Part shown: piece after piece, positions 4,946 to 24,880 of the stretch | How positions within the stretch are numbered: position 1 is the stretch's first letter | Layout of the letters: the number at the start of each line of letters is the position of its first letter | From: a virus | Taxonomy: Duplodnaviria; Caudoviricetes | DNA length: 28,779 bases | IMG/VR virus record: IMGVR_UViG_3300028837_001194 | Location: 1 to 28,779 of that record | Strand: one strand, 5' to 3' | Notes under the pieces: model-generated | The model's input: the letters and a program-made list of their open reading frames with translations, nothing else | What the model was told of the DNA's origin: nothing | Databases searched by the model: none | Program-made: the position numbers and the translations under genes

Positions 4946-5313
4946 TATTTTTCAGGAATGATATATCCGTCCTTTTTCGCTAATTTTTCGGCCAGTTTTA
5001 TATCACCACCAGCCAAATAGTAATAATGTAATCCAATCTCGTCCGTCATAGGTTTTTCTCTTTTTCTAAATTCTTTAATCCATTGAGTAGTTCCTATTTC
5101 TTCTGCTCTTTCTGATGACATCCATTCCATTTTAGCTTTGTAAGGCAGAGCTCTTAACGCTTTTGTTCTTTCTTCTACAGGCCAATCTTCATACCACCAG
5201 TCTTTTACTGTTGGCTTAAACATAAAGAATAAATAATCCTGACTTTCCTGTGGCGATGGTGGCCTTTTATGAATTGATTGATGTTCCCTTAACCACTTAT
5301 CATAGTCGTCCAT
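4945..5313 (-). CDS. Hypothetical protein, possibly the C-terminal part of the gp15-like ejection protein
   Basis: 122-aa ORF whose frame stays open upstream to ~5379, overlapping the end of 5352..6305 in the -1 frame. Confidence 0.6.
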   Translation of the reverse strand: MDDYDKWLREHQSIHKRPPSPQESQDYLFFMFKPTVKDWWYEDWPVEERTKALRALPYKAKMEWMSSERAEEIGTTQWIKEFRKREKPMTDEIGLHYYYLAGGDIKLAEKLAKKDGYIIPEK

Positions 5314-5351
5314 ATACCTTATTTTGTCCTCTGGGGTTTTAGCAAATTCAT

Positions 5352-6305
5352 TTATTTGCGTATTGCCTTTTGTTGGTCTTCAGTCAGAACGCCGTCGTAG
5401 CTTTCAATTAAATCGAATATATCACCCGTAAAATCCTGCGGCATTTTACCCGTTTCGATAGCATCGTAAATCGTATCTTTTGCGTCCTCCTGAGCTTTCT
5501 TTAATGCTTCATCGTCAAGATTCTTTTTGAAGTTATACTGAGTCCTGACATCTTCAAAAACCTTGTCCCACTGCTCTCCTGTTATTCCGTATTTCTCTCT
5601 TGCCTCTCTTTTCCTTTTGGGGTCGTTCATCCACTTTGCAGCTTCGTCCCATCCGCCTTCTGCTGCTAACTGGTCTGTCTTTTCCTCCAACCACAAAACA
5701 GCAGCTTTTTCTGCTGCTTTAGCTTTCTTTGCGTCTATTTCTGCACCTATCAGTTCCTTCATCGTAGGCACAAGTTCTTTGTCGTATACTGTCCCTGCGT
5801 GCCTATCTAACAAATCAAAAGCCGCCTGCTTGTCCAAATTGGCGACGTGGCTTTTTAACATCATCTCCGCTTTTTCGGCTTCACGCCTTCCGACAATAGT
5901 TCCAATTTCGCCATCAAGCCGCTTATTGAGTCTTTCTTTGTTCTGTGCTAACCAATTATTCGCATAGTCTTTGCTCGCCGGCAGCTTTAGTTTTTGACCT
6001 GCCAGATTCAATCCATTTATTGCCTTTTCCTTTTGCTGTCTGATTTCATCGACACCTGCACCTGGATTCTCTATCAGCCAAGTCCTAAATCCTTCAATAG
6101 TCGTTCCCGTCTGTCCGAGAAAAGAATGTATCTCATTACCAGTTTTTATTTGATTGATTTTTGATAATATATCTCCCCCCGTTTGTGCTATAACTGCGCC
6201 AAATTGCTGTTGCCCTCTTGTATTAGCAAGGTAGTAAGGTGGTTTATGTGCAGGTAAAGCTGTCGGCGTTTGTGTTCTCTGATATAATTTTATTTCTACT
6301 CCCAC
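5352..6305 (-). CDS. Internal virion / ejection protein (T7 gp15 positional analogue), 317 aa
   Basis: Charged, helical-looking sequence between the gp14-like and gp16-like genes. The GTG start directly abuts the upstream TAA. Confidence 0.65.
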   Translation of the reverse strand: MGVEIKLYQRTQTPTALPAHKPPYYLANTRGQQQFGAVIAQTGGDILSKINQIKTGNEIHSFLGQTGTTIEGFRTWLIENPGAGVDEIRQQKEKAINGLNLAGQKLKLPASKDYANNWLAQNKERLNKRLDGEIGTIVGRREAEKAEMMLKSHVANLDKQAAFDLLDRHAGTVYDKELVPTMKELIGAEIDAKKAKAAEKAAVLWLEEKTDQLAAEGGWDEAAKWMNDPKRKREAREKYGITGEQWDKVFEDVRTQYNFKKNLDDEALKKAQEDAKDTIYDAIETGKMPQDFTGDIFDLIESYDGVLTEDQQKAIRK

Positions 6306-6869
6306 TTAAAAATTCCTCGTATAACTATAAGGTGTTGTTTTCCAGTTAAAAGTTGTATCAGGAGTCCATCCCAAAGATTGTTTATTGAGATTGAATAATC
6401 CTGATTCCCAAGATGCCATCCCTGCCCTGCCAAATCCTAATAGTCCCGTAGATAGAGACTGCCATTTAGCCTGCTCTCTTGCCATTTCGCCGTAGGCCGT
6501 TTCGTATGTAGCCCTCATCTCATATAATTCCGCAGTTTCCCTGCCCCTTTCGAGTATGTAGCCCTTATCTTTAGCGGCATCGAGTTTCGTCTGAGCCTCG
6601 ATAATTAAAGGCGCACCGATATTAATCCTTACGTTAGAAGCAGCGAATCCCACCTTTTGTGAAGCAATAAGCCTGCGTTTCTTTTCCTCTAAGATACGAG
6701 CCTTTTCCTCGGCTTCTTTCTTTACCATCTCCGCACGTTTGCGCTCCTGCTCCGCTCTGGCATTTGCCAAGTCCTGAGCCATTTTGCCCTGCTGCGAGAT
6801 TGCCCTCATCTGCATAACCGTGCCGGCAATCATACCGCCAATGAGCAATGCTGGTACTGCGGCTGCCAT
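6306..6869 (-). CDS. Internal virion protein (T7 gp14-like), likely start MAAAVPALLIGG at 6869
   Basis: Hydrophobic Ala/Gly N-terminus, coiled-coil middle and the QKVGFAASNVRINIGAP motif typical of small podovirus ejection proteins. TAATG overlap and GAGGA RBS support 6869 rather than 6887. Confidence 0.75.
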   Translation of the reverse strand: MAAAVPALLIGGMIAGTVMQMRAISQQGKMAQDLANARAEQERKRAEMVKKEAEEKARILEEKKRRLIASQKVGFAASNVRINIGAPLIIEAQTKLDAAKDKGYILERGRETAELYEMRATYETAYGEMAREQAKWQSLSTGLLGFGRAGMASWESGLFNLNKQSLGWTPDTTFNWKTTPYSYTRNF

Positions 6870-7318
6870 TATTCTGTCCTCGTCCAAATGTGCATATCTG
6901 GCTCCTTCTTGAACCCTAAATGCTCAAGAAACTTATCGCTTATTTTCGACTCTGCGAATACGCGCCAGAGGTTTTTTTCGTCCCTCGTCTTAATAAATAC
7001 ATCTTTCGTTTCTTCAAAAAGTTTTTTCTTCTGCCTTAATCTTATATGGGGAAAAGTCGCACACCACGCCTCACCCAGACCTATATAGCGGATACCGCCT
7101 ACCCCGAAAAATTCACCTTTATCCGTAAAATATGAATGAGCAGTACCGGTAATGATGTTTATGTTTGCAAGATATACCTTCTCTGCCTGAGACAATTTAT
7201 CGTAATCAGGGTAAAATTCCTTATTGGCCGCCATAACAGCCAAAAAGTCATCGGTTGTCATTTGTCTTTGTTCCATAATAAACCCTGCGCAACCACTGCG
7301 CAACCACTGCGCAACCAT
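6869..7318 (-). CDS. GNAT-fold-like phage protein (T7 gp13 positional analogue); start at 7318 or 7276
   Basis: FFGVGGI..LGEAW and KFLEHLGFKKE motifs. It sits between the nozzle and the gp14-like gene, as gp13 does. Confidence 0.7.
   Translation of the reverse strand: MVAQWLRSGCAGFIMEQRQMTTDDFLAVMAANKEFYPDYDKLSQAEKVYLANINIITGTAHSYFTDKGEFFGVGGIRYIGLGEAWCATFPHIRLRQKKKLFEETKDVFIKTRDEKNLWRVFAESKISDKFLEHLGFKKEPDMHIWTRTE
7285..7317. repeat. Perfect tandem repeat (CTGCGCAACCA)x3
   Basis: Read directly from the sequence; each unit contains the palindrome TGCGCA. Confidence 0.95.
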
Positions 7319-7320
7319 AG

Positions 7321-9339
7321 TTAGGGCGCATTCATTCCATATTGAGTAATAATCTGTCTTATCGTCAGAGGAAAAGGCGCATCGCTTTCGACGTAAATAG
7401 TCTGTTTCTTTTTCGACGCATAAGGATAAGGATATCTTCTAAATCTCGATAAACACGTAGTTAAATCCTGTGCTGTTGCGTTAGGGTCGAAATTCATATC
7501 ATTTTCAAAATTGATATATGTTAAATCATCGAGAGTTGCACTATCCCCATATTTGCAATATCCTGTTTTGTAAAAATCGAAATCAAGTGCTTGAACGTGC
7601 TTTTGCATAGCCTTGTCCTGCGGGTCTATTACCAAAGGCAAGCTCTCATATTTCGATGTGTAAGGCAGACCTGCCGTTACCCTCGCCGCCGCTCTGTCTA
7701 TTATGATTTCGCCGTTTGCATCAACTACCTCGTTAGGCTCAAAAACACCGTCGCCTAATATATATATATTTTCACCGATTAAATGGTCGAGTCCGTTAAA
7801 ATCATTCACTTCAGAACCAGTATAAGAAAGTCCCGAATCGACGAACCAGCAGTCGTTAGTATCAGTACCCCAGTCTCGCGGAGCGAATCGCTCGACGTAT
7901 TTGTAATCGTTGCCGTCTATTGTCCTGTTGACTATTACCCAAATCTCATCCTCAAATTCTATGCCGGGGATTCTGCAGACGGATTCAAAATCCCCATCCG
8001 TTGTCTGTTTAGCCCATCCTATGACCTGCTGCTGGGCATCATAAGTCAGAGTTGCAATATCACCGTTATTTAACACGCACCAAAGAATAGGTTGCGGCCT
8101 GTACTGAAAAGCAACATCTTTTATCCCGCTGTTCGTTATATCCTCGGAAAGCAGCGTTAAATCAGGTGACAGGTATTTATCGTGCTGCAAGGAATATGAA
8201 AATTCCCTTATATTCCTATTGCCTCTCTCAACGTACAATAGTGATTCGCTTGCAAGTGCCGGCATAATGGCGGCAGAGCCTACATTTGTCTGCTCCTGAT
8301 ATGCAGGACTCGTAAACTTTACAGCCTCGCCCCGCTCACCCCAAATTCCTACGCTGCCGGAAGTGCCGATAATCAGATAATCCTTAGAAGCAAGCCAGCG
8401 TATGGGATTCTGTCCCGTAAGGGCAACGAGAAAGGCTGAATCGTCCAATGCTCCTTCCATAAAATTCTCAGGGTTGCCTGTTTTGCTGAACCATAAAATT
8501 TGCGGATATGTGGTCGAGCCGCCGAATACAAGTCTCTGCTGGTGATAACAAACAGTTTTGGGCCAGCCGTAACGGTCGCTCCAATAAGGCTCTCGCCAGT
8601 GTTTTGTGGCATCTGTCGAATCCAACGCTGTTAATACTGTCCCCGTAACGACCGTTCCGCTCTCATAATCGGTAATTTTTACTACTCCGTGATTTAGCGG
8701 GTCTGTAATAGTGAAAGTCCAGTCGCAGGTGCCGCTTACATAATCGCTCATTGTAACCCTGTAGATTGCTCCATCTTCTTCTGTCTCTGCCGGATTATCG
8801 AAATGTGTGCTGTTCATCGGCACTAATGCGTTTTTCCAGGTAACACCGTTATTTGTGCTTCTCTCTAAAGTTACCGTAGCGTCCCAGGTGCCATCGGTAA
8901 TAAAGGAATAACCGCCGACAAAATAATCCGTTGAGTCGCCTGATTCGTCATCGTTTAACGAGCCTGTATAAGATGTATTTGAGCGTTTCTGGTTTATCTC
9001 CCAGATTGAGCCGTTATGCGTTTCCAGAAATATGCTGCTGCTGGCGGTGAGTGTAATCGAGTCTTTTGTACCCGAAGGTGTAATAGTTATATCCTCATCG
9101 TTTTCAGGCAGGAACGGCCCCGTTGATATGTCCATATCGGCAATCGTCCAGTCGTTATGAGCCGCTCTCGTCAGCTTTTGCGGCCAGTCGTTGCCATCGA
9201 CGAGGTACATAGTATTATCGGCCTGTGCGTACTGGACATCCCATATCTCGCAGGCGTCGAAAACAGTAGCGATGTAATATGCGTCGCCGTAACATAAAGA
9301 GCTTAAAAGCAAGAACAGTAAAATTATTAGTTTTTTCAT
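7321..9339 (-). CDS. Tail nozzle (tail tubular protein B, T7 gp12-like), main C-terminal part, with its own signal peptide
   Basis: Motifs VQYAQADNTMYLV, GWPKTVCYHQQRLVFGG..PQILWFSKTG..ENF, LSPDLTLLSEDI, WAKQTTDGDFESVC, FVDSGLSY..GLDHLIGE, AGLPYTS. The N-terminus is MKKLIILLFLLLSSLCYG|D. Confidence 0.88.
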   Translation of the reverse strand: MKKLIILLFLLLSSLCYGDAYYIATVFDACEIWDVQYAQADNTMYLVDGNDWPQKLTRAAHNDWTIADMDISTGPFLPENDEDITITPSGTKDSITLTASSSIFLETHNGSIWEINQKRSNTSYTGSLNDDESGDSTDYFVGGYSFITDGTWDATVTLERSTNNGVTWKNALVPMNSTHFDNPAETEEDGAIYRVTMSDYVSGTCDWTFTITDPLNHGVVKITDYESGTVVTGTVLTALDSTDATKHWREPYWSDRYGWPKTVCYHQQRLVFGGSTTYPQILWFSKTGNPENFMEGALDDSAFLVALTGQNPIRWLASKDYLIIGTSGSVGIWGERGEAVKFTSPAYQEQTNVGSAAIMPALASESLLYVERGNRNIREFSYSLQHDKYLSPDLTLLSEDITNSGIKDVAFQYRPQPILWCVLNNGDIATLTYDAQQQVIGWAKQTTDGDFESVCRIPGIEFEDEIWVIVNRTIDGNDYKYVERFAPRDWGTDTNDCWFVDSGLSYTGSEVNDFNGLDHLIGENIYILGDGVFEPNEVVDANGEIIIDRAAARVTAGLPYTSKYESLPLVIDPQDKAMQKHVQALDFDFYKTGYCKYGDSATLDDLTYINFENDMNFDPNATAQDLTTCLSRFRRYPYPYASKKKQTIYVESDAPFPLTIRQIITQYGMNAP

Positions 9340-9698
9340 TCTAATATCGGGCCTCCATCATTATTTGCATCTGTTCGAAAAAATCTTATACATTCATCCG
9401 TTAATTCGAGGACATAGGCATCGTCCGTCGAATAATTGAACGGAATAAGCCTTGCGAGAGTCGTACTGTTTGCATCTTCTATGTATTGCGTGCCCGGACG
9501 TCTTTCTATCGGCCCCTGCGTAAAGACGAACATATTCTCAAGCTGCCTGCATCCGCTTGTGTACCGCTGAAAGTCGCTTCTCGCTTCGAGCAAGGGTGAG
9601 AACTGCCCACCATTAAAAGATGTTAGAGCGGGTGAAAATGCGTAACATATTGCAGCTATAAGAGTTATAAACAATATTATTATTGCCTTTTTTATCAT
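9336..9698 (-). CDS. Tail nozzle N-terminal module (short paralogue), with signal peptide
   Basis: SFNGGQFSPLLEARSDFQRY..GCRQLENM..QGPIERRPGTQY..RLIPFNYSTDDAYVLEL is the canonical tubular-B N-terminus. It is preceded by MIKKAIIILFITLIAAICYA|F. ATGA overlaps at both ends. Confidence 0.85.
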   Translation of the reverse strand: MIKKAIIILFITLIAAICYAFSPALTSFNGGQFSPLLEARSDFQRYTSGCRQLENMFVFTQGPIERRPGTQYIEDANSTTLARLIPFNYSTDDAYVLELTDECIRFFRTDANNDGGPILE

Positions 9699-11155
9699 TG
9701 CATCACCTGCCCCGGTTCCCCGTTTGCATCCGTTCTGTAAAAGCCCATAAATCCACCGCCAAAAGAAAGTACATAAGAATCGTCCGTCGAGATTTCAACA
9801 GGGATAAGGCGTACTGAATCAGCAGAGACACTTTCAAGATATTCTATATATGTATCGGCTTTAGGTAGTACCACAGGTTTTGTAATAAAAGCTACCGGGG
9901 CCTGCAAAGTAATACCGCCATCTCTCGTATCGTTTGTTTCAATGAAGCTCAGGTCATCAGACGAATAAGTATCACAATAATACGGATTGCGAATCACTCG
10001 TATATTGCCGAAAGTATCAATAAAGAAAGTATAGCTGTTTATATCACCTGATGTTTCTGCCTCTATAGATGATAAATCGGCTGATAATTTCCAAATGCGC
10101 TGTATCGTGCTTGTTGTTGTGCGACCGGCGACATATACATAACCGTTATAGGTGTTAATTGAATACATTACAGGTATATTTGAATTGGCATATTTCCACA
10201 TATGAACGGTATCATCGGTAAGGCTTAAAGCAAATACACAGTAGTAACGAAACTCTGCCGGAATGTTTGGATATAGATAATTTGACCATCCGCATACATA
10301 TACATAGCCCATATCATAATCAACGCACATATCATAAGGGAACTGTATTCTGACATCCCAGTCCGGGTCGTTGTCCGAATCCTCGCTCAAATCTGATTTT
10401 ATTATGTGAGGCTGATAATGCTCACAATCCTCAGCTATACCACCCACCCTCACAATTTCATCATCATTAAGAATTTGTATTGCATAGCCCCCACCAAGAT
10501 AATTATCATCTAAATCTGTTTCATAAAGTCCAATAAGTGTGCCATCGACAGCAAATTTCATTAAGCGACCACTATGCGATGAGCCGCCGTGAGCATAAAT
10601 ATACTGGTCGTCTGCGCTAAAGTGGACATCCCAAACTGTTTTGTCGTAACCGATATCGATACCAGGCTCAAAGTCTGCCGTTATAATCTCACCTGTTGTG
10701 GAATTGTATGTAGATAAAACCGAATCAATATAATCTGTATTATTAGTCATCGCTACAATACTGCCATCGGATGATATATCTGCCGCATAGGATTCAGTAA
10801 CCTCATAATCATCATCAGGGTCGTAGCTGTTTTGTGCTAAAATAGCCTCGCAATTTCTGTCAAAAATGCCCCACCGATAGCCAGCAGGAACAATATACAT
10901 AGGCGGCCAGAATATCTCCGGCAAAAATTCAGGCTCTTCCAATTCTCCGACATATTGCGTGCCCGGTCTTCTCGTAATCGGGCCGTGAGTATAAACGAGC
11001 ATATTTTCTAAGATTCGGCAGGAGCTTAAATATTTATCAAATCCGCTTCTCGCCTCAACAGACGGGCTTACCTGCCCTGCATTGAACGATAAAAATGCAG
11101 GTGAAACAGCCAAAGCAGTCGTCGAGAATAAAAGCAAAATCAAAATCCTTTTCAT
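9695..11155 (-). CDS. Tail nozzle N-terminal module (long paralogue) with a ~370-aa inserted beta-propeller-like domain, with signal peptide
   Basis: SFNAGQVSP..ARS..KY..SCRILENM..HGPITRRPGTQYV, then the insert (AADISSDGSIVA, VWDVHFSADDQYIY, YNGYVYVAG), then RLIPVEISTDDSYVLSF..FYRTDAN. The N-terminus is MKRILILLLFSTTALA|V. Confidence 0.82.
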   Translation of the reverse strand: MKRILILLLFSTTALAVSPAFLSFNAGQVSPSVEARSGFDKYLSSCRILENMLVYTHGPITRRPGTQYVGELEEPEFLPEIFWPPMYIVPAGYRWGIFDRNCEAILAQNSYDPDDDYEVTESYAADISSDGSIVAMTNNTDYIDSVLSTYNSTTGEIITADFEPGIDIGYDKTVWDVHFSADDQYIYAHGGSSHSGRLMKFAVDGTLIGLYETDLDDNYLGGGYAIQILNDDEIVRVGGIAEDCEHYQPHIIKSDLSEDSDNDPDWDVRIQFPYDMCVDYDMGYVYVCGWSNYLYPNIPAEFRYYCVFALSLTDDTVHMWKYANSNIPVMYSINTYNGYVYVAGRTTTSTIQRIWKLSADLSSIEAETSGDINSYTFFIDTFGNIRVIRNPYYCDTYSSDDLSFIETNDTRDGGITLQAPVAFITKPVVLPKADTYIEYLESVSADSVRLIPVEISTDDSYVLSFGGGFMGFYRTDANGEPGQVMQ

Positions 11156-12081
11156 TAAGACCGTCCCCCAAGATAATCGACTTTTGTTTTCGTACGCCTG
11201 TTATACTGGCTCTGGTTAGCGACTTTTGCAGAAGATTTTACCAACTGATGATATTCGAGCAGTTTATCCTGCCGTGTTTTAAGGTCTCTACCGCAAACGG
11301 GACACAGTTCGGCAGCCAGAAGCGTCGAAAAGCACTGGACAAAATCGTCGCTGAAACCCGATTCCTTATCTTTAAGGTCGTGTACGTATTCGATAAATGC
11401 ACTATCTCCTGCGTGGTTGCTCAAAGTATTGGTTATTAAAATTTTGCCATCCTGAGCTTTATTAAGGAGAGTGTCGAACCTATATTTAAGTCTTTCTTCT
11501 TCTGTGCTTGAAAAGTCCTCGTTAATCTGTCTGACGACATACTCGCAATCGTCCGGCAAATCAAAGCAATAGCTATAACCTCCAATTTCAGGGCAATAGC
11601 TCGTTATCCCCGAATCCTCTGTATATTCCCAGCTATCCGTACCCTCTATATCATCCAGAGTAAAACTCGTTGAATCGACGACTGTAATATCGGAAATCTT
11701 GTTATTGAGGGCTAATTCAAGACCGAGCGAACCTCGTACACAATAGAATCCGATTGAGTCGCCGTCCTCATAATCGTATGCCTCTTTCGTTGTTATTGTG
11801 ATAGTACCACCGGATATGCTTATATCGGAAATTGTCTCATCATACTGCTTAAAGTCAGTACCTAAATCGGCGAATTTCAAACTCTCCCTGAACGGGCAGC
11901 CCGCCTTCGCCAAATCGAGAACTACCTGTAATCTGGCCTGAGAATATATCTCAAGTGCGAAAGTTGTTATTTTGTCCGAACCATTCAGGTTAGACAAAAA
12001 AGGATATGTTCCGAACTGGTCGCCTGCCCCGCCAATCTTGCCGAAGGCTTTATTGATAATCTCCAATTTTGTGTAACTCAT
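11155..12081 (-). CDS. Tail adaptor (tail tubular protein A, T7 gp11-like) with an internal inserted beta domain
   Basis: TKLEIINKAFGKIG N-terminus, YCFDLPDDC and FVQCFSTLLAAEL motifs. It lies directly before the nozzle genes and has no signal peptide. Confidence 0.8.
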   Translation of the reverse strand: MSYTKLEIINKAFGKIGGAGDQFGTYPFLSNLNGSDKITTFALEIYSQARLQVVLDLAKAGCPFRESLKFADLGTDFKQYDETISDISISGGTITITTKEAYDYEDGDSIGFYCVRGSLGLELALNNKISDITVVDSTSFTLDDIEGTDSWEYTEDSGITSYCPEIGGYSYCFDLPDDCEYVVRQINEDFSSTEEERLKYRFDTLLNKAQDGKILITNTLSNHAGDSAFIEYVHDLKDKESGFSDDFVQCFSTLLAAELCPVCGRDLKTRQDKLLEYHQLVKSSAKVANQSQYNRRTKTKVDYLGGRS

Positions 12082-12230
12082 TATCTTCTCCTGCCAGAAC
12101 CCTTACCTCTGCCTTTGCCCCTGCCGTATCCGGGGCCGCCTCTTGAGCAGCTACTTTTATTTCTATTCCTGCGACCGCCGCCACGCATACCTCTGCCTTT
12201 GCCCGCGCCTTTTTTTGCTCCGTATTTCAT
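12081..12230 (-). CDS. 49-aa Gly/Arg/Lys-rich peptide; not in the ORF track
   Basis: MKYGAKKGAGKGRGMRGGGRRNRNKSSCSRGGPGYGRGKGRGKGSGRRR*. It has a purine-rich RBS (AGGAAGGG), fills the gap, and its TAA overlaps the adaptor ATG. Confidence 0.8.
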   Translation of the reverse strand: MKYGAKKGAGKGRGMRGGGRRNRNKSSCSRGGPGYGRGKGRGKGSGRRR

Positions 12231-12244
12231 AAGCAATTCCCTTC

Positions 12245-13174
12245 CTAATAAAGCCTGCCATAAACGGTTATGTCACCCGCCTCGCCAGTTTGCTCAGGCA
12301 GGGCATCGTAAATAACGAATTGAACCCACTCAAGACCGGTCATATCCACTACAATAAAAGCAACTTCATTATCACCGGAATTATAGACAGCGACAGAAGG
12401 CCATTTGGTTGTTTCATCAAGATTGATAGTATCAGCCCAGAAAGAAGGATTGATTTGAACCCTTGCAGTTGTATCACTTGACGATGTTATGCCGGAACAT
12501 ACAATATTGTTAGAATCAGTTGCCGTCGTTATCGCATAATATCCGGTAGTAAGGTTTGAATCATTATCTGAAGTTACATAAGCCATCATACCGGCGACAA
12601 CATTTTCGAAGGCTTCATTAGTAACCGTGAATTTGGTTTCGCTATCGGTATAAGTTACATTAGATTCATCTACCAACGCCCCTACAGCGTCACCGCCATC
12701 GGGATATACAATGACAGCCTGATTGCCAAGAACACAATCGCCCTCGGCTATGTTCTGGAGCATACCGTTAATTCTGCTCCAGCCTATGATGTTGAAACTG
12801 AATGTATTATCAATAGCATTATCAGCACCTACATCGTAATTTTTAGCGCAAATGGCAAACATCCACGCACCGCCCGATGATTGAAATTCAGTGCCGTCAC
12901 CGCTTCCGGCATAAGAGTATATTCTGTACGGCCCGCCGTTTGCTACCGATGAGCTGTTTTTATTGGCGAAATTGCCCGCCGTAGTTAATGGATATACAGC
13001 TGCAAAAGTTGCGCCGTCCTCATCTGCCGTTTCCCTTATCAGCTTCCAGCCCGAATGATATGTATCGAGCGGGTCTGCTCTGGTCGTCGTAATAATAAAG
13101 ACAATAGCCCCTACAATTACAAAGAACAGCAAGACGGCGATAGTCGCCCGTCCTAATCTTAATATCTTTTTCAT
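12245..13174 (-). CDS. Hypothetical beta-rich protein with N-terminal signal peptide/anchor, 309 aa
   Basis: MKKILRLGRATIAVLLFFVIVGAIVFIITTTRA|DP; TAAGGAG RBS; acidic, Thr/Ser/Asn-rich mature part. Confidence 0.75.
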   Translation of the reverse strand: MKKILRLGRATIAVLLFFVIVGAIVFIITTTRADPLDTYHSGWKLIRETADEDGATFAAVYPLTTAGNFANKNSSSVANGGPYRIYSYAGSGDGTEFQSSGGAWMFAICAKNYDVGADNAIDNTFSFNIIGWSRINGMLQNIAEGDCVLGNQAVIVYPDGGDAVGALVDESNVTYTDSETKFTVTNEAFENVVAGMMAYVTSDNDSNLTTGYYAITTATDSNNIVCSGITSSSDTTARVQINPSFWADTINLDETTKWPSVAVYNSGDNEVAFIVVDMTGLEWVQFVIYDALPEQTGEAGDITVYGRLY

Positions 13175-13184
13175 TTCGTTCTCC

Positions 13185-14015
13185 TTAATATCTGTTTCTG
13201 TAATATTTTCTGTACCCGTATTTGGTTCTTGCCCTCATAATGTTCTCAGCAGTAGAACTAAGTCCAACTTCTTCCGTGCCGGTGCCGTTGTTATAAAGAC
13301 TTATGATTTGCGCTTCGGTGAGTTCGTTATCGTAGATTACGAGATTGTCTATAACGCCTTTTGCCATACTAATACTGTCTTTGCCGATGTATATATCCTC
13401 ATTGCTGTTATCGACATTAGCGAAAGTTCCGTTTATATCATCACTGTCGTCAACCTGCTGGCCATCGAGATATAATTTGACGCCGCTTGACAAAGCACCG
13501 CCGTCGTAAGTGCAGCATACGAAAATAAAGTCGCTACCCTCATACAGGGCATAGTTGGTCGTAGTATCAATCCTGCCAATCTTCGCCTGACTGGCGCTTT
13601 CGTCATAAAGGGTAAAATACATATTGTCACCACCGACATAAAAGCTCCATTCAAGGGCTGTGCCCTTTTTGTTGGCTATCATAAAATCGAGAGCGCCTTC
13701 ATCTGCCGAAAGACTTATCCACGATGTAATACTAAAAGGCGTCCCATCAGGCGTAAAAGCGGCGGCATCGGAAACCGTGATATAATCGTTTGTCCCATCG
13801 AGCTCTATCGCTGCATTTATCTTGCCCGTAGTAGTATGCGCTGAAGTGTAGTCATCGGCGCCGCCTGTGCCGTGAAAAGTGCCCGTATAGCTGCCGACGG
13901 AATCGGTAACAGTCGTATTATCGGCGTCGTCGTTCATCTTCCACTGTGCAATGGCGTCGCCGAAACAGTTGCCGGGCAAAAACAATACTAAGAACAGAAA
14001 TAATATTCGTTTCAT
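13185..14015 (-). CDS. LamG / concanavalin-A-like jelly-roll protein with signal peptide (likely start 14015)
   Basis: AQWKMND..VTDSVG, GKINAAIELDGTNDYI, FSITSWI, VKLYLDGQ, GVIDNLVIYDNELTEAQIISLY are LamG_3-type motifs. GGAG RBS precedes MKRILFLFLVLFLPGNCFG|D. Confidence 0.85.
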   Translation of the reverse strand: MKRILFLFLVLFLPGNCFGDAIAQWKMNDDADNTTVTDSVGSYTGTFHGTGGADDYTSAHTTTGKINAAIELDGTNDYITVSDAAAFTPDGTPFSITSWISLSADEGALDFMIANKKGTALEWSFYVGGDNMYFTLYDESASQAKIGRIDTTTNYALYEGSDFIFVCCTYDGGALSSGVKLYLDGQQVDDSDDINGTFANVDNSNEDIYIGKDSISMAKGVIDNLVIYDNELTEAQIISLYNNGTGTEEVGLSSTAENIMRARTKYGYRKYYRNRY

Positions 14016-14025
14016 AACATTCTCC

Positions 14026-14059
14026 AAAATATGGGAGCGAGTTTCCCCGCCCCCACATT
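14026..14059 (-). terminator. Probable intrinsic terminator after the 1525-aa gene
   Basis: Minus strand ATGTGGGGGCGGG-GAAA-CTCGCTCCCATAT (stem with G-U pairs) followed by a short T run. Confidence 0.65.
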
Positions 14060-14069
14060 AAAATTAAAT

Positions 14070-17000
14070 TTATTGAGCTACTACCGTCGTTCCATCCGTG
14101 ATACATCTCCACGTCAGATACCAGATAATAACACCGGTGGCATCTCCATCGGTGTTGGTCTGCTCAATATCACCTATAGGACAGAACCAAGAATCAAACA
14201 GACTTGTAGCACCGTTAGCGGCAGCTTCGCACGGAGTCAAGACGGATGGCGTAGCATTGGAAAAGACATATTTTGTCCCTACGGCATCGCCTTCTGTTGC
14301 TACCGCCGTGGAAAAGTCAACATCCTGCGCAGGAGTTGTGGCATCGCACCAGATTTTCATATTACCGGGACCGGCAGCAATTTCTGTCGTGACAATACCG
14401 ACAAAATCAAGGATGTAAATAGGTGCTGAAACGGCAAACAAGTCCTCTGCAAACGCCGTCGAGGTTGTGCAGACAGCAGTGTAGGTTTGTCCTGCAACCG
14501 TACTGGTTGCCGGCACTAACCTTCCGGACTCATCCGTTGCATCTATCGCATAGTTCTCAAAGCACTTCATATAACCAGGGTCAAGTATAGAGCCCCAGGT
14601 ATCGGCGTACATCTTGTTGCCGGTACACATACCTGTTGCGTTGCCTGCGAACTCAATACAATGCTCTCCGGTATTTACATTGGTAAGTATATTGTTGTGA
14701 ATGTTCAAGTTGAGGCATACCTGAGCAGCGCCCCAGATTGGTGCTTCTGAAAAATCTCCATATACTACATTATTCTCTATGGTCGTATCAACACAAGCGC
14801 CCTGGTCAAGATTGACAAAAGTGGTTACGTGCCCATCAGTTACATTAAGAGTTTTATAGGTGCAGTTCCTTACGGTAACACCGGTCGCTGTACTGTGGAC
14901 GATAATGCCATCTACAAACTCATCGACAGTAGTTTCCTCACCATCAAGAAATGCGCAATCTTCAATCGTAGCGTTAAGTCCCGTAGCTTCGATATCAATA
15001 GCTTTGAGTACGTTGGTAGCGCCGGGTCGGAACTGGATGTTCTTTATAGTGATGTTGGCCTTGCTGATTACTACTTCGGCAGCCGCATTTTCAAAATCAA
15101 TTCTCGGTCGAGCATTGCCAACACCCATACCAATAACACTAATACCAGCCACGTCAAGGTCAACAGCATCGGCGTTGCTAACGTCTTCGTAATGGCCTTC
15201 GGCTACCAGAATTATATCTCCCGCATCGGCGGTACAAGCGGCCTCGGCAAGATTGATAGTCGTAAAAGCCGAACCCCACGAACGGCCATCCTCACCACTG
15301 CCTGAGCGGTCAACATACCATACCTGGCCGGTTCCTTTACCTACCAAACCTGCGATATCGACATCGAGCGACTGGTCATCTCCAATGAGACGGCTTCCAG
15401 CGGTGGATTCAATCTCGCTGTAGGTGTTTCGAGCTAAGAACATATCCGCCCCGACAATAGATGCTTCCGGTGTGGCTACGTCGCAGAATAAAGAATTGTC
15501 GCTAATAACGCCGGTGGTCGTTTCGAGAAGCTCGATACAAGGTTCGGTATTCAAACCTGCAATTCCGCCGATAGTACCGTTGAATAAGGTATTGTGCTTA
15601 ATCACTATATGGTCGGCTGCGGTAGTATCGCTGTGAATACAAGCTGTGCTATAATCACCGTGTACTTCGTTACCGACAATCTCTGCATAGTCGGAATCTT
15701 CAAAATGAACCATAGCTACGGCGTCATTCGCACCCATCTGGAACCGGCAGTTCTTAATAACAAAGTTGTTATTTGCAGCAGCGTGGTCGATACAGTGGTC
15801 GAACTCATTCGTTGCGGAGGCAAAACTAAACTGGCAATCCTCAATCCTACAGTTTTCAGCACCCGTCTTGACCGTAATAGCAACCAGCACCGAATCCGCA
15901 CCGGCAATAAAGTGAAGGTTTTTGATTGTAATATCATCGTTGTCGATAGAGAGCGTTGCGCTTCCACCGGTATAAGTAAAGGTCGGCCTAAGGTCGCCGT
16001 TGCCAAGACCTATAATGGTAACACCGCCTACATCTATGTCGGCATATTCGGTTGTAAGTGTTCCTTCGGCGTGTCCTGCAGCGACATAAATAGTATCACC
16101 CCTGTCATCAGTACAGAGAGCCTCGGCAGCGCCAAGAGTAGCAACTGCAGTTGCCCAACTCCTACCATCTCCAGCACCAGGCGTGCCGGAATCAACGTAG
16201 AATATTCTGCCTGTGCCGTATTCGGCAACCTCATCATCAACTTCAGGTACAAGATAAGCCGAAGTGTTAATGGCATTTGAACCATAATTTTCAAAACACA
16301 TCATAGAACCGGGGTCGAGTACCGAACCGTATGTATTGGCATACAACCTATTACCTGAACAAACACCAGTCGCAGCGCCAGAACCTTCGACACACATTGC
16401 AGCCGAGGTATAGTTGCTGATAATGTTGTTCGTTATGGTCAGATTAACCGGAACGGCTGCACCCCAGTAGACAGCTGCATCTGCAAAAGTGCCGAATATC
16501 CTGCAATTCGTTATCGTGCAGTTGTCGATAGTAGTATCCTCAAGGTTGATAAACGTATCGGCTTCACCAGCTGTAGCGTTAGGATTTACATAAGTACAGT
16601 TATTAATGGTAACTACAGCTGTTGCATCAACGAGAATGGCATCTTCCCATTCATCGCCGGACTGCTCGCCGGTAATAAATGCACAATTATCCATCGTGCA
16701 GCCAATAGCGCCGGATTCAAAGTGAATACCTTTCGTCATAACCGAAGCGCTTGGATTAAAGCGAAGGTTCTTGAGCGTGACACCCGCGGCATTGATAGTT
16801 AAAACCAGCGTAGTATTGCCATCAAAATCAAACAGCGGACGGGCATCACCTTCACCTAAACCAATAATTGTCAGGTTAGCTACATCAATTATCGGTTGTG
16901 CCGCCTGAGTCCATCCTTCGTTGTGACCATCTGCTATGTAAATAACATCACCGGCGGAAGATGCGGCCTCAGCGAGAATAAGTGTAGAGTAGGCGTTTTC

Positions 17001-18647
17001 CCACGTCAGACCTGAACCATCACCTGAAGTGCCACTGTCAACATAGCGAATCGTTCCAGCACCACCTAATATGGTTGGTGTGTCAAGATTCAACTCCTCA
17101 ATACGCCTGACCATAACCTGGTCGCCACTTCCCAAAGCGGCACTAAAAGTTTCGACAGTAAATGTTCCGGTCAGTGAGACGTAATCAGTGATGTCTCTAA
17201 TTTCACCTTCCGGAGCATTGCCAACCGAATCATAGTTGAGCGTGCAAATCATAGACCAGCCTGTATTAAAGTAGTCATCGCCGAAACCGGCCAGTAAAGC
17301 AACAACAGGAGCCGTCTGGCTGGCAGCAGTATTATTACCTACATAACCGGTATCGGATAGAGCGGCTATCGAAGAGGCGATAGAGGATATTGAGGATGGT
17401 ATGTCCGTACCGGTATCCACAAGTATCGAGTCAACATTGCCTGATACCGTTGATACTGCTGAAGCAGTAGCACCAGCCGTATCGGAACCGTAAAGTAATG
17501 TTCTTGCTTCTGCTGATGTATCCCAAGCCGCTGTATCGGCAAGAATATCATCGGTATCTGAACCTATGTGGTCTAATGCAGCTTTGATGTTATCGTCAAC
17601 AGCAGAACCAGTAACGGGGCCGGTGAACGCACCGAGCATACTTTCAATGTTTCTTCCCGGTAAAGCCTCAGTCTGCATAGCTACATTGTCCGGCGATACG
17701 AACATAGCAGCACCGACAAGTTCAAAACCAGCGCCATTGGCATAGCAGGCATTGTTAATAAAAGCCCCATTAGTTGATGCTTCTACCTGTAATGTCTTAC
17801 CCGCCGTAGCATCCAGATTGACAACGTAGTTATCGGTAATCATTACACCCGTTGAGGTTGCCTGTAAAATATCGACAACACTTGCGCTCCATGTACCGAT
17901 AAATGTATTACCCTGAATGATTGTCTTATCAGAACCGCCTGCAAAATAAATCGCCGAAGTGGGGTCGGAACTGGCACCGCCGATAAATCTATTACCTGCA
18001 ATAGTCAGAGCATCGGCGTCAGTAGCCACATTAAGCATTATCAGTTGTTCCATAGAACTTGATGTTTCCCAGAACTCGCAGCCAATAATCCGTGTACCAT
18101 CGCCGTCACCGTTGATATAAATACCTGCGGTTATACCACCGGAATAAGCACCCAGAAAACGCATATTGTAAATCGTTATATCGGCCTCGCTTATTGTCAG
18201 TTCTGCTCCGGCATTTGTTATGAAGGAAATCGTCGGCTGGTTTTCACCTTCACCGAATCCGACAATAGTAATACCTTCACAATCCGCATCGAGAGCAGAA
18301 GCAGCGGTAATGTTTTCTTCGTGGTTCTCGGCGACGTAAACGAAATCGCCTAAATTCGCCGAACACAAATCAATACCTTCCTGCAAAGTTCCGACAGCAG
18401 TCGCCCACGAAAGACCTGTAGAACCATCAACGGCAGAATCGACATAGTAAATCGTACCAGAACCTATATCCATACCGCCTAAACCTGCCTCCACTTCTGT
18501 CATAAAACGGTAAACCGGGTCGTTACTGCTGCCGGTCCTTACAAACTGAAGGTTCTTTTTGTAGTTATCAGCCCCGTAAGTCAGAGCGGCCTGTGCACAA
18601 GTAGCCAATAACAGAAATATAATAGTGGCATAAATTACCTTTTTCAT
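14070..18647 (-). CDS. 1525-aa acidic protein with signal peptide and four tandem right-handed beta-helix (pectin-lyase-like) domains; putative spike/adhesin
   Basis: MKKVIYATIIFLLLATCAQA|A. The cap motif GxGxIxYVDS..G.G.SW..A..TL..A......GD.IYVAxGH.E occurs four times (~18450, ~17045, ~16200, ~15315), each followed by ITIxNxxF/IxNCxF rungs. TAAGGAG RBS. Confidence 0.82.
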   Translation of the reverse strand: MKKVIYATIIFLLLATCAQAALTYGADNYKKNLQFVRTGSSNDPVYRFMTEVEAGLGGMDIGSGTIYYVDSAVDGSTGLSWATAVGTLQEGIDLCSANLGDFVYVAENHEENITAASALDADCEGITIVGFGEGENQPTISFITNAGAELTISEADITIYNMRFLGAYSGGITAGIYINGDGDGTRIIGCEFWETSSSMEQLIMLNVATDADALTIAGNRFIGGASSDPTSAIYFAGGSDKTIIQGNTFIGTWSASVVDILQATSTGVMITDNYVVNLDATAGKTLQVEASTNGAFINNACYANGAGFELVGAAMFVSPDNVAMQTEALPGRNIESMLGAFTGPVTGSAVDDNIKAALDHIGSDTDDILADTAAWDTSAEARTLLYGSDTAGATASAVSTVSGNVDSILVDTGTDIPSSISSIASSIAALSDTGYVGNNTAASQTAPVVALLAGFGDDYFNTGWSMICTLNYDSVGNAPEGEIRDITDYVSLTGTFTVETFSAALGSGDQVMVRRIEELNLDTPTILGGAGTIRYVDSGTSGDGSGLTWENAYSTLILAEAASSAGDVIYIADGHNEGWTQAAQPIIDVANLTIIGLGEGDARPLFDFDGNTTLVLTINAAGVTLKNLRFNPSASVMTKGIHFESGAIGCTMDNCAFITGEQSGDEWEDAILVDATAVVTINNCTYVNPNATAGEADTFINLEDTTIDNCTITNCRIFGTFADAAVYWGAAVPVNLTITNNIISNYTSAAMCVEGSGAATGVCSGNRLYANTYGSVLDPGSMMCFENYGSNAINTSAYLVPEVDDEVAEYGTGRIFYVDSGTPGAGDGRSWATAVATLGAAEALCTDDRGDTIYVAAGHAEGTLTTEYADIDVGGVTIIGLGNGDLRPTFTYTGGSATLSIDNDDITIKNLHFIAGADSVLVAITVKTGAENCRIEDCQFSFASATNEFDHCIDHAAANNNFVIKNCRFQMGANDAVAMVHFEDSDYAEIVGNEVHGDYSTACIHSDTTAADHIVIKHNTLFNGTIGGIAGLNTEPCIELLETTTGVISDNSLFCDVATPEASIVGADMFLARNTYSEIESTAGSRLIGDDQSLDVDIAGLVGKGTGQVWYVDRSGSGEDGRSWGSAFTTINLAEAACTADAGDIILVAEGHYEDVSNADAVDLDVAGISVIGMGVGNARPRIDFENAAAEVVISKANITIKNIQFRPGATNVLKAIDIEATGLNATIEDCAFLDGEETTVDEFVDGIIVHSTATGVTVRNCTYKTLNVTDGHVTTFVNLDQGACVDTTIENNVVYGDFSEAPIWGAAQVCLNLNIHNNILTNVNTGEHCIEFAGNATGMCTGNKMYADTWGSILDPGYMKCFENYAIDATDESGRLVPATSTVAGQTYTAVCTTSTAFAEDLFAVSAPIYILDFVGIVTTEIAAGPGNMKIWCDATTPAQDVDFSTAVATEGDAVGTKYVFSNATPSVLTPCEAAANGATSLFDSWFCPIGDIEQTNTDGDATGVIIWYLTWRCITDGTTVVAQ

Positions 18648-19060: not shown

Positions 19061-19591
19061 TTAACTTCCAGCCGATGCCTTGCTTGGAACGCCAACGGGA
19101 GATTCAACCTTAATAGTCCTGTCAGCCGTCGGAGGTTTCGTTGGTGAAAGTGCGGCATTGATTGAGATATTGGCATCGCCATTACCGTCAGCAAGCGTGG
19201 ACATCAAACCGATATAGACATCATCCGAATCGGTAAGACTTTGCTCACTGCGGAAATCCCTTATTGTCTGGGAAAGTATGGCTCCAATATTGGCATAGGC
19301 TAAATGTCGTCCTAAAGTCAAAAGTCGTTTATCAGTAGCTCCGGTTATCGTAACGCTCAGAATCTCTTTGTAAGTAGTAAGAGCCGTCGTTGTGGCAACT
19401 CTCAGAGAAAAGGTATATGTTGAACTGCTCCCACCGTTGCCGTCGTTAACTGTTTCGGTATCAACAACCCACCATACATTCTCCATTCCGTGCCCTAATA
19501 CTGCGGAATCTTTTATAACATTTTCAGATACCGCAGCACCGGCCACCAAGTCCTGAGCAGTTGAAAGTTCGCCTAATTTTGCAAGTATCAT
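19061..19591 (-). CDS. Capsid cement protein (BPP-1 Bbp16-like)
   Basis: The N-terminus MILAKLGELSTAQDLVAGAAVSENVI fits the Bbp16-type pattern (MI.D....S..Q......S..VI). Directly downstream of the MCP; AAAGGAG RBS. Confidence 0.75.
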   Translation of the reverse strand: MILAKLGELSTAQDLVAGAAVSENVIKDSAVLGHGMENVWWVVDTETVNDGNGGSSSTYTFSLRVATTTALTTYKEILSVTITGATDKRLLTLGRHLAYANIGAILSQTIRDFRSEQSLTDSDDVYIGLMSTLADGNGDANISINAALSPTKPPTADRTIKVESPVGVPSKASAGS

Positions 19592-19609: not shown

Positions 19610-20680
19610 TTAAGAGGCGGCGCTTACTGCGGCTTCACCTGAACCGACTTCGTGATTAAGCGCATCCATCCTGCAAATTACGATGTCCTCGCCTATCATT
19701 GACATTTTTGTACGATATATGTTCTTATCTGATGGAAAAACCATCAGCTTATCGTTATTCGTCCGAACCAGCTTGGAGTAAAGTCTTTCGTCGCAGAACA
19801 GCAGCCAGTTGGATGGTAAATCCTGAACATTACCATCAGCATTTACTTCCATAGTGCCGCCGGTTGGTGAATTGATAATGGAAGCATCCATAATTGTGTT
19901 TACAAGGTCAACGCCGGGATTGTCAGAAACGCCGCAAGCGACGTTACATATCCTCTTAACCGCCCTCTGGTCGAGCAGGCACATTCCCTTTTGAATCATA
20001 AACTCAATCATAATGTCCCATCGGTGCTCATCGCTGTTTGTGCCGAGACCATCGACGAGAACTTCGCCCTTGTCCTCTTGCTCAATTCCCAGAGTCGGAT
20101 GGTTCTTGTTGTAGAGGAAGTGGAATGTATCTATCCCCGGCTTAATCAGCCAGGCTGAACGCCGGTCGTCACCTGAACCGCCCGCAGAGAAACAGAATTT
20201 GTTGTCGTAAGTTGTATATGGCGGACGTTTCATAAGACCTTTAAGTGCCGCCTGTTCGGGTGCCGTAGTGCCTGACATCATCAGGTTAGTTACCTGCTGA
20301 TTGAGCATCATAACGTGCTCGGTTTTGGCGGCTTTGAGCAGCTTCTGTCCGACTGCGGGTTCATAAGTTGTAAATGTATCTTTCGGCGCCTGATAGGATG
20401 AGCGGATAGTACAAAGTGCTTCATCTACCGGCTCATATTCACCTTTAGACGACTTCCAGCTACCGCCCAAAGTGACAAGATAGCCTGTCGGCAGATTTAC
20501 CTGCCGAAGTGCGTGATGGGTCAATCCTTCATTTGCCGGAAACGCGGGAATAAGACGTGAAAAATCGTCCCTTTCCGCCAGAGCGTGTGCAATCTGTTCA
20601 ACAGGACTGCCGTTTGGATGGCGGAATTTCAGCAAATCATAGACATTCCCATAAGTTAATAGTGAATTAGTCGTTGCCAT
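19610..20680 (-). CDS. Major capsid protein (BPP-1 Bbp17-like)
   Basis: IAHALAERDDFSRLIPAFPANEGLTH..LRQVNLPTG, EQEDKGEVLV, RAVKRICNV and C-terminal ICRMDAL..GEAAV patterns. 356 aa; TAAGGAG RBS. Confidence 0.88.
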   Translation of the reverse strand: MATTNSLLTYGNVYDLLKFRHPNGSPVEQIAHALAERDDFSRLIPAFPANEGLTHHALRQVNLPTGYLVTLGGSWKSSKGEYEPVDEALCTIRSSYQAPKDTFTTYEPAVGQKLLKAAKTEHVMMLNQQVTNLMMSGTTAPEQAALKGLMKRPPYTTYDNKFCFSAGGSGDDRRSAWLIKPGIDTFHFLYNKNHPTLGIEQEDKGEVLVDGLGTNSDEHRWDIMIEFMIQKGMCLLDQRAVKRICNVACGVSDNPGVDLVNTIMDASIINSPTGGTMEVNADGNVQDLPSNWLLFCDERLYSKLVRTNNDKLMVFPSDKNIYRTKMSMIGEDIVICRMDALNHEVGSGEAAVSAAS

Positions 20681-21125: not shown

Positions 21126-21911
21126 TTATTCTCCCCATAAAGCTTTTGTGGTTTTCTCTAAACCTTCCTTTTCGCCGAATGATTTTTCTTTTTCTTTTTC
21201 TTTGATTTCACCACCTTCACCTCCTTCCGTTGAACCCTGTTTTGATAGCGGTGCCATTGCCGTAATTATGGCTTTGGTGAACAATGGATTTACTGCGACA
21301 ATATTACCGTTTTCGTCAAACAGGTCGTTGACTAACTGGCCTGCTTCTTCTGGTGTTAATCCTGACTTGTTTTGCAGCGTCCTCTTGAAAAGCTCCTTTT
21401 GCACTTTGTAGTTTTCATCGCCGCCGAAAGCCTGAGATAGCTTCTGATTCGTTTCTGTAACCTGCTGCTTTAATGCCTGAGTGTGAGATTCTCTTGCCTG
21501 CCTGTTAGCTGTATTCCAAAGCTCAACTGCGTTTTCGGCTGTTGTTCGGGGCATAGGATTCTTAAACAAGAATTGCTTGAACGTATTTACCATTGTCTCA
21601 TCGGCCTGTCCCCCTTCGGCCATCCCCTTCGTCCAGGGGAAATCTTTTAGCTGCTCCTCGCTCTCGACAACACCCGTAAGCTTATTTACGCCGGACATAA
21701 ACTCCGCCTTCGTCTTATCATCCGGCAGCTTGTCCATAGATTCCGGCAGCTTAAAGGGCGCTCCTATAACTTTCTGTGCCTCCAATAAGCCAACGTGTGC
21801 ATCTTCGGGAGTTTCGTACTTGCCCATTGCCTTGTTAAACGATTCTCTGTTCTCAGCCGTTATTGATGGGTGCTCAACCCCTTCGGCCCAATGTCCTTCA
21901 CCATTACTCAT
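21126..21911 (-). CDS. Capsid scaffolding protein
   Basis: Lies between portal and MCP. Charged and helical, with a KYETPEDAHVGLLEAQKVIG..KLPE pattern typical of podovirus scaffolds. Confidence 0.75.
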   Translation of the reverse strand: MSNGEGHWAEGVEHPSITAENRESFNKAMGKYETPEDAHVGLLEAQKVIGAPFKLPESMDKLPDDKTKAEFMSGVNKLTGVVESEEQLKDFPWTKGMAEGGQADETMVNTFKQFLFKNPMPRTTAENAVELWNTANRQARESHTQALKQQVTETNQKLSQAFGGDENYKVQKELFKRTLQNKSGLTPEEAGQLVNDLFDENGNIVAVNPLFTKAIITAMAPLSKQGSTEGGEGGEIKEKEKEKSFGEKEGLEKTTKALWGE

Positions 21912-24570: not shown

Positions 24571-24662
24571 AATCTGATAACATTTTTCTTCTTCGGCTTA
24601 TGAGATTCAGCCTTTTTCTGTGTTTCTTCTAAATCCTTAGCCTTGCGTCGCTTAGATGACAT
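24567..24662 (-). CDS. 31-aa Lys-rich micro-ORF
   Basis: MSSKRRKAKDLEETQKKAESHKPKKKNVIRL*; TAATG overlap with the upstream gene and AGGAGAAGG just before it. Confidence 0.55.
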   Translation of the reverse strand: MSSKRRKAKDLEETQKKAESHKPKKKNVIRL

Positions 24663-24880
24663 TACCTTCTCCTGCGTTTACGTCTTGTCTTTCTCTTTAC
24701 TGTCTGTACGCCGCTTGCAATCGTCCTACCACCTCGCGGCCCCTTCTTTGACATAACCCTGACGTGAATATATTTGCCAGGTTTCGGCTTTATCGTCCTG
24801 ATTCGCAGAACCTTGCCACGACCCTTTACTTTGCCGCCTGGCTTGTCCGGTAGCTTTCTTTTGCAACCTTTTCCTGTCAT
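24662..24880 (-). CDS. 72-aa extremely basic protein
   Basis: Lys/Arg/Gly-rich with a single acidic residue, ending KRKTRRKRRRR. Coupled by overlaps at both ends. Confidence 0.75.
   Translation of the reverse strand: MTGKGCKRKLPDKPGGKVKGRGKVLRIRTIKPKPGKYIHVRVMSKKGPRGGRTIASGVQTVKRKTRRKRRRR

Follow-up and report, generated by a model that had tools for sequence, protein, structure and literature searches.

Where does a podovirus assemble its tail when the genes for the outer parts of the virion open with apparent export signals? To our knowledge, the particles of tailed phages are assumed to be completed in the cytoplasm. The question is raised by a podovirus head-tail module on the minus strand of the IMG/VR virus record IMGVR_UViG_3300028837_001194, a single virus record of 28,779 bases (hereafter the window). 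Its gene order is terminases, portal, likely scaffold, capsid, likely Bbp16-type cement, a block of eight genes and the internal virion genes. Six of the eight block genes begin with a leader of basic, hydrophobic and then small residues; the adaptor and a 49-amino-acid (aa) open reading frame (ORF) have none. An earlier prediction made from these letters (the original prediction) had proposed that the nozzle and appendages are exported and meet filled heads only at or beyond the inner membrane. The reading that we favor, with a probability of about 0.6 overall, is that this is a podovirus whose nozzle and appendages are exported by Sec and would join cytoplasm-built, filled heads after the inner membrane is breached at lysis, either in the periplasm or in the lysate. 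In gene order, the block contains the following features.

14070..18647, minus strand: 1525-aa appendage with a 20-aa leader, a conserved N-terminal module of ~40 aa and then repeated beta-helix-like units; 34 Cys in the mature part.
13185..14015, minus strand: LamG/ConA-like appendage with a 19-aa leader (PF13385, E-value 4e-18); Shine-Dalgarno sequence 5' of the ATG at 14015.
12245..13174, minus strand: 309-aa protein with a 33-aa leader; predicted beta-sandwich with an inserted small barrel.
12081..12230 (L001:7110-7259), minus strand: 49-aa Gly/Arg/Lys-rich basic ORF without a leader; its stop overlaps the adaptor start.
11155..12081, minus strand: portal adaptor, T7 gp11-like, without a leader (phrog_394, E-value 4e-12).
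9695..11155, minus strand: second copy of the nozzle N-terminal piece, 486 aa, with a 16-aa leader and an insert of ~370 aa that is a predicted beta-propeller.
9336..9698, minus strand: nozzle N-terminal piece, 120 aa (100 aa mature), with a 20-aa leader (phrog_376 positions 5-96, E-value 2e-27).
7321..9339, minus strand: nozzle main piece, 672 aa (654 aa mature), with an 18-aa leader (phrog_376 positions 105-709, E-value 9e-135).

Leaders were called by a rule of our own, namely an uncharged hydrophobic 8-mer with a mean Kyte-Doolittle value of at least 2.6 and net positive charge before it; the calls carry no SignalP or Phobius score. Six of the 22 window N-termini tested passed this rule, exactly the six that the original prediction had named, and so did 16 of 7309 internal positions; the head, adaptor and ejection genes of the window all failed it, again as predicted. 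All six leaders have a positive n-region and an uncharged hydrophobic h-region at supported start codons: the three appendage starts are preceded by GGAG/AGGAG Shine-Dalgarno sequences, and the three nozzle-piece starts overlap the stop codon of the gene upstream. Small residues occupy positions -1/-3 before the predicted mature start in each of the six proteins, and the early mature region is net negative in five of them (+2 in the 1525-aa protein). The claim that nozzle family sequence begins right after the leader was borne out, with phrog_376 starting at residue 21-22 of each piece.

To place these leaders in context, 187 nozzle loci were fetched from three collections, the best 80 being kept in two of them. 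In the resulting homologue counts, rows were not de-duplicated, frames open at the locus start were omitted, and any ATG in the first 60 codons was allowed in all classes. Leaders were present on outer parts (52/52 large appendages, 8/10 homologues of the 309-aa protein and 6/10 LamG proteins) and on nozzles (99 of 165 main pieces, 13 of 15 N-terminal pieces and both 486-type pieces). None was seen on head and connector proteins (0/73 adaptors, 0/44 capsids, 0/32 portals, 0/36 scaffolds and 0/24 cements) or on the ejection proteins (0/45 and 0/24), and small internal proteins gave 0/54 and 3/96. Unrelated fibre-like ORFs, as defined by composition, carried a leader in 179 of 212 cases beside leader-bearing nozzles versus 7 of 34 beside leaderless ones. 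A similar rule was passed by 91 of the 120 protein homologues listed (of 510). The leaders are thus kept in homologues and confined to outer parts.

On a FastTree tree of 133 nozzle rows, in which 12 of the 90 'leader' labels were set by eye and 10 rows are unlabelled, the leader label needs five changes, at least three of them forced by strong branches, compared with 29 for shuffled labels. The window nozzle sits in a group of 68 rows, 65 of which are leader-bearing. Two loci combine a leaderless nozzle with leader-bearing appendages (L045:9459-12005, which lies within the leader-bearing group of the window, and L038:9659-12205). This combination, an intermediate state, suggests that the appendages were exported first, and export of the nozzle likely followed later. 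A leader-bearing nozzle nested among leaderless ones (L072:2682-5069) likely represents an independent gain of the leader.

Are these leaders removed? Most leaderless nozzles have the FNxG family motif near residue 10, but in 75 of 78 leader-bearing ones it stands 20-35 residues from the start. Gly or Ala occupies position -8, the commonest site, in 40 of 73 leader-bearing nozzles (at most 6 of 71 inside the h-region). Given this offset and these small residues, cleavage would restore the N-terminus usual for leaderless nozzles. The nozzle genes of the cultured phages RpY1, SPN1S and HTVC010P begin 7-8 codons before the match, and orthologues of the 309-aa protein that lack a leader (L077 and L040) have their start at the point where its mature part begins. 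Lysine or arginine is rarer in the first 18 mature residues of leader-bearing nozzles than in leaderless ones (0.44 vs 1.18). The lipobox count was 4/170 and no Tat motif was found, a pattern that does not fit lipoprotein (signal peptidase II) or Tat signals. From this comparative evidence we infer, with high confidence, that the leaders are cleavable Sec signal peptides and that the proteins are exported and cleaved.

The same features bear on two other explanations of the leaders. They might act as membrane tethers or folding brakes, so that the proteins stay on the cytoplasmic face and tails assemble there with no translocation. The DNA-retention problem discussed below would then vanish, the 33-aa leader of the 309-aa protein is long enough to anchor, and the net charge of the early mature regions has no clear export signature. 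We find this improbable, as the small residues at -1/-3 are placed so that cleavage restores the family N-terminus, early mature regions are depleted in lysine and arginine, and a D-[APV]-N motif, described below, is shared with host secreted proteins. Signal peptidase I, moreover, acts on the outer face of the membrane. Alternatively, each gene might encode both a long form that is exported and a short one that starts internally and stays in the cytoplasm; in-frame TTG codons within the window leaders could serve as the internal starts. The positions of these codons differ from gene to gene, however; a Met near the mature start occurs in only 6 of 73 homologues, and the nozzle starts are translationally coupled to the upstream stop. 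Such dual products therefore seem very improbable.

A profile of 50 nozzle homologues matches the Carin-1 nozzle 8ck1_A (E-value 1e-129); the homology spans the platform, propeller and C-terminal parts, the nozzle core is conserved over its whole length, and the gene stands after the adaptor and before the internal virion genes. The 120-aa and 672-aa pieces jointly cover positions 2-106 and 113-760 of the nozzle model (5-96 and 105-709 of phrog_376). The original prediction had counted three nozzle pieces, and this needs correction: the 486-aa piece, which matches phrog_376 8-62 and nozzle model positions 1-~70 and 67-106, is a second N-terminal copy with an insert of ~370 aa and not a third piece in sequence. 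The Atlas model of this insert has a template modeling (TM) score of 0.63-0.69 to propeller models, while single-sequence fold prediction of the 486-aa piece gave a predicted local distance difference test (pLDDT) value of 32; no homologue of the insert was found among the ORFs of the fetched loci. The window nozzle thus departs from the single leaderless polypeptide form in being encoded by three leader-bearing genes.

The same three-gene nozzle layout occurs in L006, L128, L111 and L180. The gene junctions of the block show zero indels among contigs of four runs from one marine-sediment study (two of these runs being possibly the window's own source), and the junction between the 120-aa and 672-aa genes is also spanned by a contig from a different sample. 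The indel-free contigs, together with the shared layout, rule out an assembly artefact as the origin of these junctions.

Split nozzles do not form one clade: three changes are needed on a 38-row tree, and a single clade is rejected (approximately unbiased test, p-AU 0.003; the group was named after the first tree had been seen). The breaks lie at model positions ~110 and ~73, in loops that both carry inserts in other members, leaderless ones included. Every new C-terminal piece has its own leader, while fused forms of 1250-1450 aa keep only the first leader and have no internal stretch of leader strength at the joint. Judging from these homologues, splitting and joining of the nozzle occurred at least three times, at two sites, and each piece carries a single leader. 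A leader gained with each new chain would be difficult to account for if the pieces did not all have to reach one compartment, and this repeated splitting with a new leader per piece argues that the leaders are under selection. Besides these genes, extra partial copies of the C-terminal part of the nozzle, covering model positions ~530-600 with large inserts, were observed at L081:12003-14501, L173:5030 and L190:12546, with a leader in L081 and L173.

Whether the exported proteins are virion parts can be judged from near-complete relatives. G406, G407 and G409 (terminal repeats, 100% complete) and G410 (99%) contain only a leader-bearing nozzle locus, and no leaderless nozzle was detected in any of the four; the exported nozzle is therefore likely the one in their virions. 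These are normal phage genomes of 44-50 kb with terminase, portal, capsid, ejection and replication genes, with the adaptor, portal and ejection genes arranged in virion gene order. These genomes do not support the suggestion, also part of the original prediction, that the module has been repurposed as an exported apparatus. It could still be argued that the exported proteins form a surface apparatus or a receptor block against superinfection, with the tail coming from elsewhere, since the payload domains (LamG, F5/8, beta-helix and propeller) are typical of surface proteins. We regard this as highly improbable in view of the single nozzle locus, the virion order kept by the adaptor, portal and ejection genes, and the full-length conservation of the nozzle core.

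The host of this virus is likely a member of the Phycisphaerae. Named homologues derive from Phycisphaerae bins; bins with close homologues comprise Phycisphaerae, other Planctomycetota and five other phyla, the last of which indicates that binning is noisy. A further clue comes from the relative G407 (59% nozzle identity), which has, immediately upstream of its terminase genes, a five-repeat mini-array of clustered regularly interspaced short palindromic repeats (CRISPR) whose repeat is of Cas13b type (L205:9497-9832; G407:C1:39497-39796). Among 401 genomes of the class to which a Phycisphaerae-labelled genome belongs, three have arrays with this repeat, and in one of these the array lies next to a Cas13b gene on a 285-kb contig; none of 201 genomes from a different sediment phylum has it. 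Two of the four spacers in the G407 mini-array match its own capsid and nozzle genes (30/30), one per orientation. No CRISPR spacer to the window was found in the 401 genomes of the host-candidate class; of the short matches, 11 were inspected, and none of these belonged to an array.

Leader-bearing proteins of this group also share a short motif with secreted proteins of a candidate host. D-A-N/D-P-N was noticed first in the window nozzle and tested afterwards. DAN occurs at 3.6 times expectation in leader-bearing nozzles, 0.4 times in leaderless ones and 0.25 times in head and ejection proteins, and DPN reaches 5.2 times in other leader-bearing proteins. The DAN sites of leader-bearing nozzles are spread over more than 30 alignment positions, and the window nozzle pieces contain seven D-[APV]-N sites versus 1.6 expected. 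In the host candidate G272, [DE][APV]N is found at 1.70 times expectation in 48 predicted secreted proteins and at 0.68 times in 126 cytoplasmic ones. Enrichment of N-x-S/T, D-S/T and CxxC was considered and rejected. At most, D-[APV]-N hints at protein modification outside the host cytoplasm or at a folding preference there, and it should not be read as a demonstrated glycosylation site. G272 encodes a 694-aa protein with about eight predicted membrane segments (L235:14118-16202), which we take to resemble TMTC/GT-C glycosyltransferases and which is a candidate modifier of D-[APV]-N.

In the proposed route, heads would be built and filled with DNA in the cytoplasm, while the nozzle pieces and appendages would pass through Sec, be cleaved and fold in the periplasm of the likely Phycisphaerae host. 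The 120-aa (or 486-aa) and 672-aa pieces would rebuild one nozzle subunit by complementation, and the 486-aa copy may add an extra propeller on some nozzle subunits. Joining to heads would follow the breach of the inner membrane, either while the outer membrane is still undisrupted or in the lysate. Three-step lysis is described as including an interval of this kind (PMC6116005), and Planctomycetota are reported to have an extended periplasm and inner-membrane invaginations (PMC12673574). Leader-bearing lysozyme-like genes exist in relatives: G406 has one (PF05497, E-value 1.5e-10), and weaker matches were obtained in G409 and G410. In three relatives, leader-bearing destabilase/transglycosylase-like lysozymes were observed at L202:4585-5106, L208:10613-11113 and L210:14443-14877, where they lie among early (recombination) genes and not after the tail genes. 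The likely benefit of export would be that the proteins can be folded or modified by the host outside the cytoplasm; a second one may be that the nozzle escapes cytoplasmic sensors such as Avs13. Of the two-compartment assembly proposed originally, export of the nozzle and appendages is well supported by comparative sequence, while the place and time at which they meet the head are our deduction.

Several observations weigh against this proposal. The first concerns DNA retention. P22 gp10 is needed for DNA holding. Likewise in T7, the closed portal keeps the DNA in for only a short time and is opened again when the adaptor binds; sealing is by the nozzle gates (PMC6702177). With a cytoplasmic adaptor and an exported DNA-sealing part, a difficulty that the original prediction had not raised, heads would have to be plugged in some other way or bind the adaptor late, and neither such a plug nor a sign of late binding was found; the adaptor might bind only together with the nozzle, or the ejection proteins or a small basic protein might plug the channel. 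Holin and spanin matches are weak, and the window's own contig shows no lysis gene. Neither the early-mature net charge (p 0.27 against leaderless nozzles; +2 in the 1525-aa protein) nor the Cys content of leader-bearing nozzles (0.80 vs 0.68%, barely higher) sets the leader-bearing proteins clearly apart. The motif is absent from the three appendages of the window (0 vs 3.6 expected) and is not raised in another clade of leader-bearing nozzles (mean 0.33, against 0.39 for those without a leader); in host G101, DPN is high in both protein classes. N-x-S/T (ratio 1.05-1.11) and D-S/T are not clearly enriched, and no STT3 gene was found in any of five incomplete genomes of candidate hosts, results that do not fit substrates of PglB/STT3 N-glycosylation. 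Finally, the host link rests on the relative G407 and on bins that also span five other phyla.

Some of these difficulties would be eased if the parts are exported as proposed and filled heads pass the inner membrane, or dock there, before lysis, by budding into or docking at the planctomycete periplasm, with nozzle attachment coupled to this step and release possibly chronic. Heads would then spend less time unsealed, the periplasm and invaginations of Planctomycetota would suit such a step, and the weakness of canonical holin and spanin matches would be accounted for. The planctomycete strain ZRK32 is reported to release phage-like particles non-lytically, from an unrelated 21.9-kb element (PMC10945688). 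Against membrane passage stand the leader-bearing lysozyme-like genes of relatives; in addition, no extrusion ATPase or secretin gene, and none for a multi-pass membrane assembly protein, stood out in a non-exhaustive look at the genes scanned or listed. We consider such passage unlikely. A broader and more tentative picture would be a large group of planctomycete podoviruses with two-compartment virions, whose exported parts are modified at D-[APV]-N by an undescribed host enzyme and joined to heads at or beyond the inner membrane, export freeing the nozzle to split and hiding it from sensors. In its entirety, this picture is doubtful.

The remaining features of the window surround the block as follows.

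27881..28779, minus strand: C-terminal half of a fibre-like protein (614 aa) that has its leader outside the window; the whole protein is L002:4795-6639.
25747..27844, minus strand: terminase genes, large (25747-27324) and small (27305-27844), without leaders.
22760..24538, minus strand: portal without a leader (PF12236, E-value 2e-42).
21126..21911, minus strand: likely scaffold without a leader, assigned by gene order/position and composition, with no family match.
19610..20680, minus strand: major capsid protein of HK97 type without a leader (PF20911, E-value 1e-23; phrog_212).
19061..19591, minus strand: likely capsid cement without a leader (PF21190 Bbp16 in 5/19 aligned homologues).
188..7318, minus strand: internal virion/ejection genes of 149, 193, 317 and 1585 aa without leaders; phrog_308 and phrog_418 for the 149-aa and 193-aa genes, the two larger ones being assigned by position.

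The fibre-like gene before the small terminase gene is a seventh leader-bearing gene, apart from the tail block, as seen in the longer contig copy L002; its product had no Pfam match. The PF21190 match of the cement was not obtained with the window protein itself, and its alignment gave only fusion-tag noise against solved structures. Among the appendages, the N-terminal module of the 1525-aa protein is common to relatives with different payloads and is likely a docking module. Beta-helix clusters offer a lead for this protein, and only chance matches were obtained among solved-structure sequences. The 309-aa protein gave a model with pLDDT 72 that aligns with YomS and XepA (Z 7.4, root-mean-square deviation 3.1 over 100, and Z 7.2, 3.2 over 99, respectively), values in the range of a common arrangement; it had no solved-structure match from alignment, no usable Foldseek match and none among 50,697 phage records. 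Both this protein (12245-13174) and the adaptor (11155-12081) contain a small inserted FCCH-like beta-barrel (weak match to PF16190).

A second small, very basic ORF of 72 aa lies at 24662-24880 on the minus strand. Similar ORFs occur just before the adaptor in L006, L007, L014 and L025 and near the portal in others, including the leaderless L065. The 49-aa and 72-aa ORFs are possibly DNA-condensing peptides. The idea that such ORFs are specific to leader-bearing phages was rejected (15/44 vs 9/18 loci, many likely shadow ORFs). A 10-base unit is repeated three times at 7276-7318, at the start of the 149-aa internal virion gene, whose true start may be further downstream. Promoter and terminator counts in the window are at chance level, its repeats are unremarkable, and no RNA run was listed as containing its sequence. 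In other loci, a leader-bearing staphylococcal-nuclease-like protein lies within the structural block (L128:5839-6366) and a leader-bearing polysaccharide deacetylase after it (L203:12576-14069).

An exported nozzle, if true, demands another order of head sealing, tail joining and lysis. It would also raise two further matters, namely whether Phycisphaerae have an undescribed protein modification and whether export serves to bypass nozzle-sensing immunity. The 120-aa gene is a small, easily tested construct. No cultured phage of this group was found, so the genomes provide isolation targets on Sedimentisphaerales cultures.

The nozzle is like those of Carin-1 (8ck1_A), the epsilon15/Uetakevirus-like SPN1S, Ralstonia RpY1 and Pelagibacter HTVC010P (gp12, tail tubular protein B), with full-length homology at 29-37% identity and the common gene order portal-scaffold-capsid-cement-adaptor-nozzle-ejection. 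The nozzles of those phages are single chains that start 7-8 codons before the core, whereas here there are two pieces and an extra N-terminal copy, each with a leader. Inoviridae coat proteins pVIII and pIII have cleavable Sec leaders and are added to the virion at the membrane. Those viruses, however, have single-stranded DNA, no pre-filled head and an extrusion machinery; none of their genes was seen in the window, and the terminase, portal and HK97-type capsid genes rule out an inovirus-like extruded phage. Endolysins of the signal-peptide and SAR (signal-arrest-release) kinds and spanins demonstrate that tailed phages use host Sec for periplasmic proteins (PMC6116005); unlike the window nozzle and appendages, these are lysis proteins and not virion parts. 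A solved split nozzle is described for Pseudomonas podophage A1002, in which gp39 and gp42 complement each other into the platform and propeller of one nozzle (PMC13730344). A1002 splits off C-terminal blades, whereas the window nozzle splits off the N-terminal ~100 residues, and the main text of that report nowhere mentions 'signal peptide' or 'periplasm' (PMC13730344). The STAND sensor Avs13 is reported to trigger immunity upon recognition of a cytoplasmic podophage nozzle; Avs families sense the portal, capsid and adaptor as well (PMC12803255), and yet these stay cytoplasmic here. No exported tailed-phage nozzle or fibre was found in the literature searched, which consisted of main texts and mostly excluded subscription journals. 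Compared with these systems, the assembly route would be new, while its parts come from known families; new here are the repeated split with a leader per piece, near-complete relatives with no leaderless nozzle, the host clue and the shared motif.

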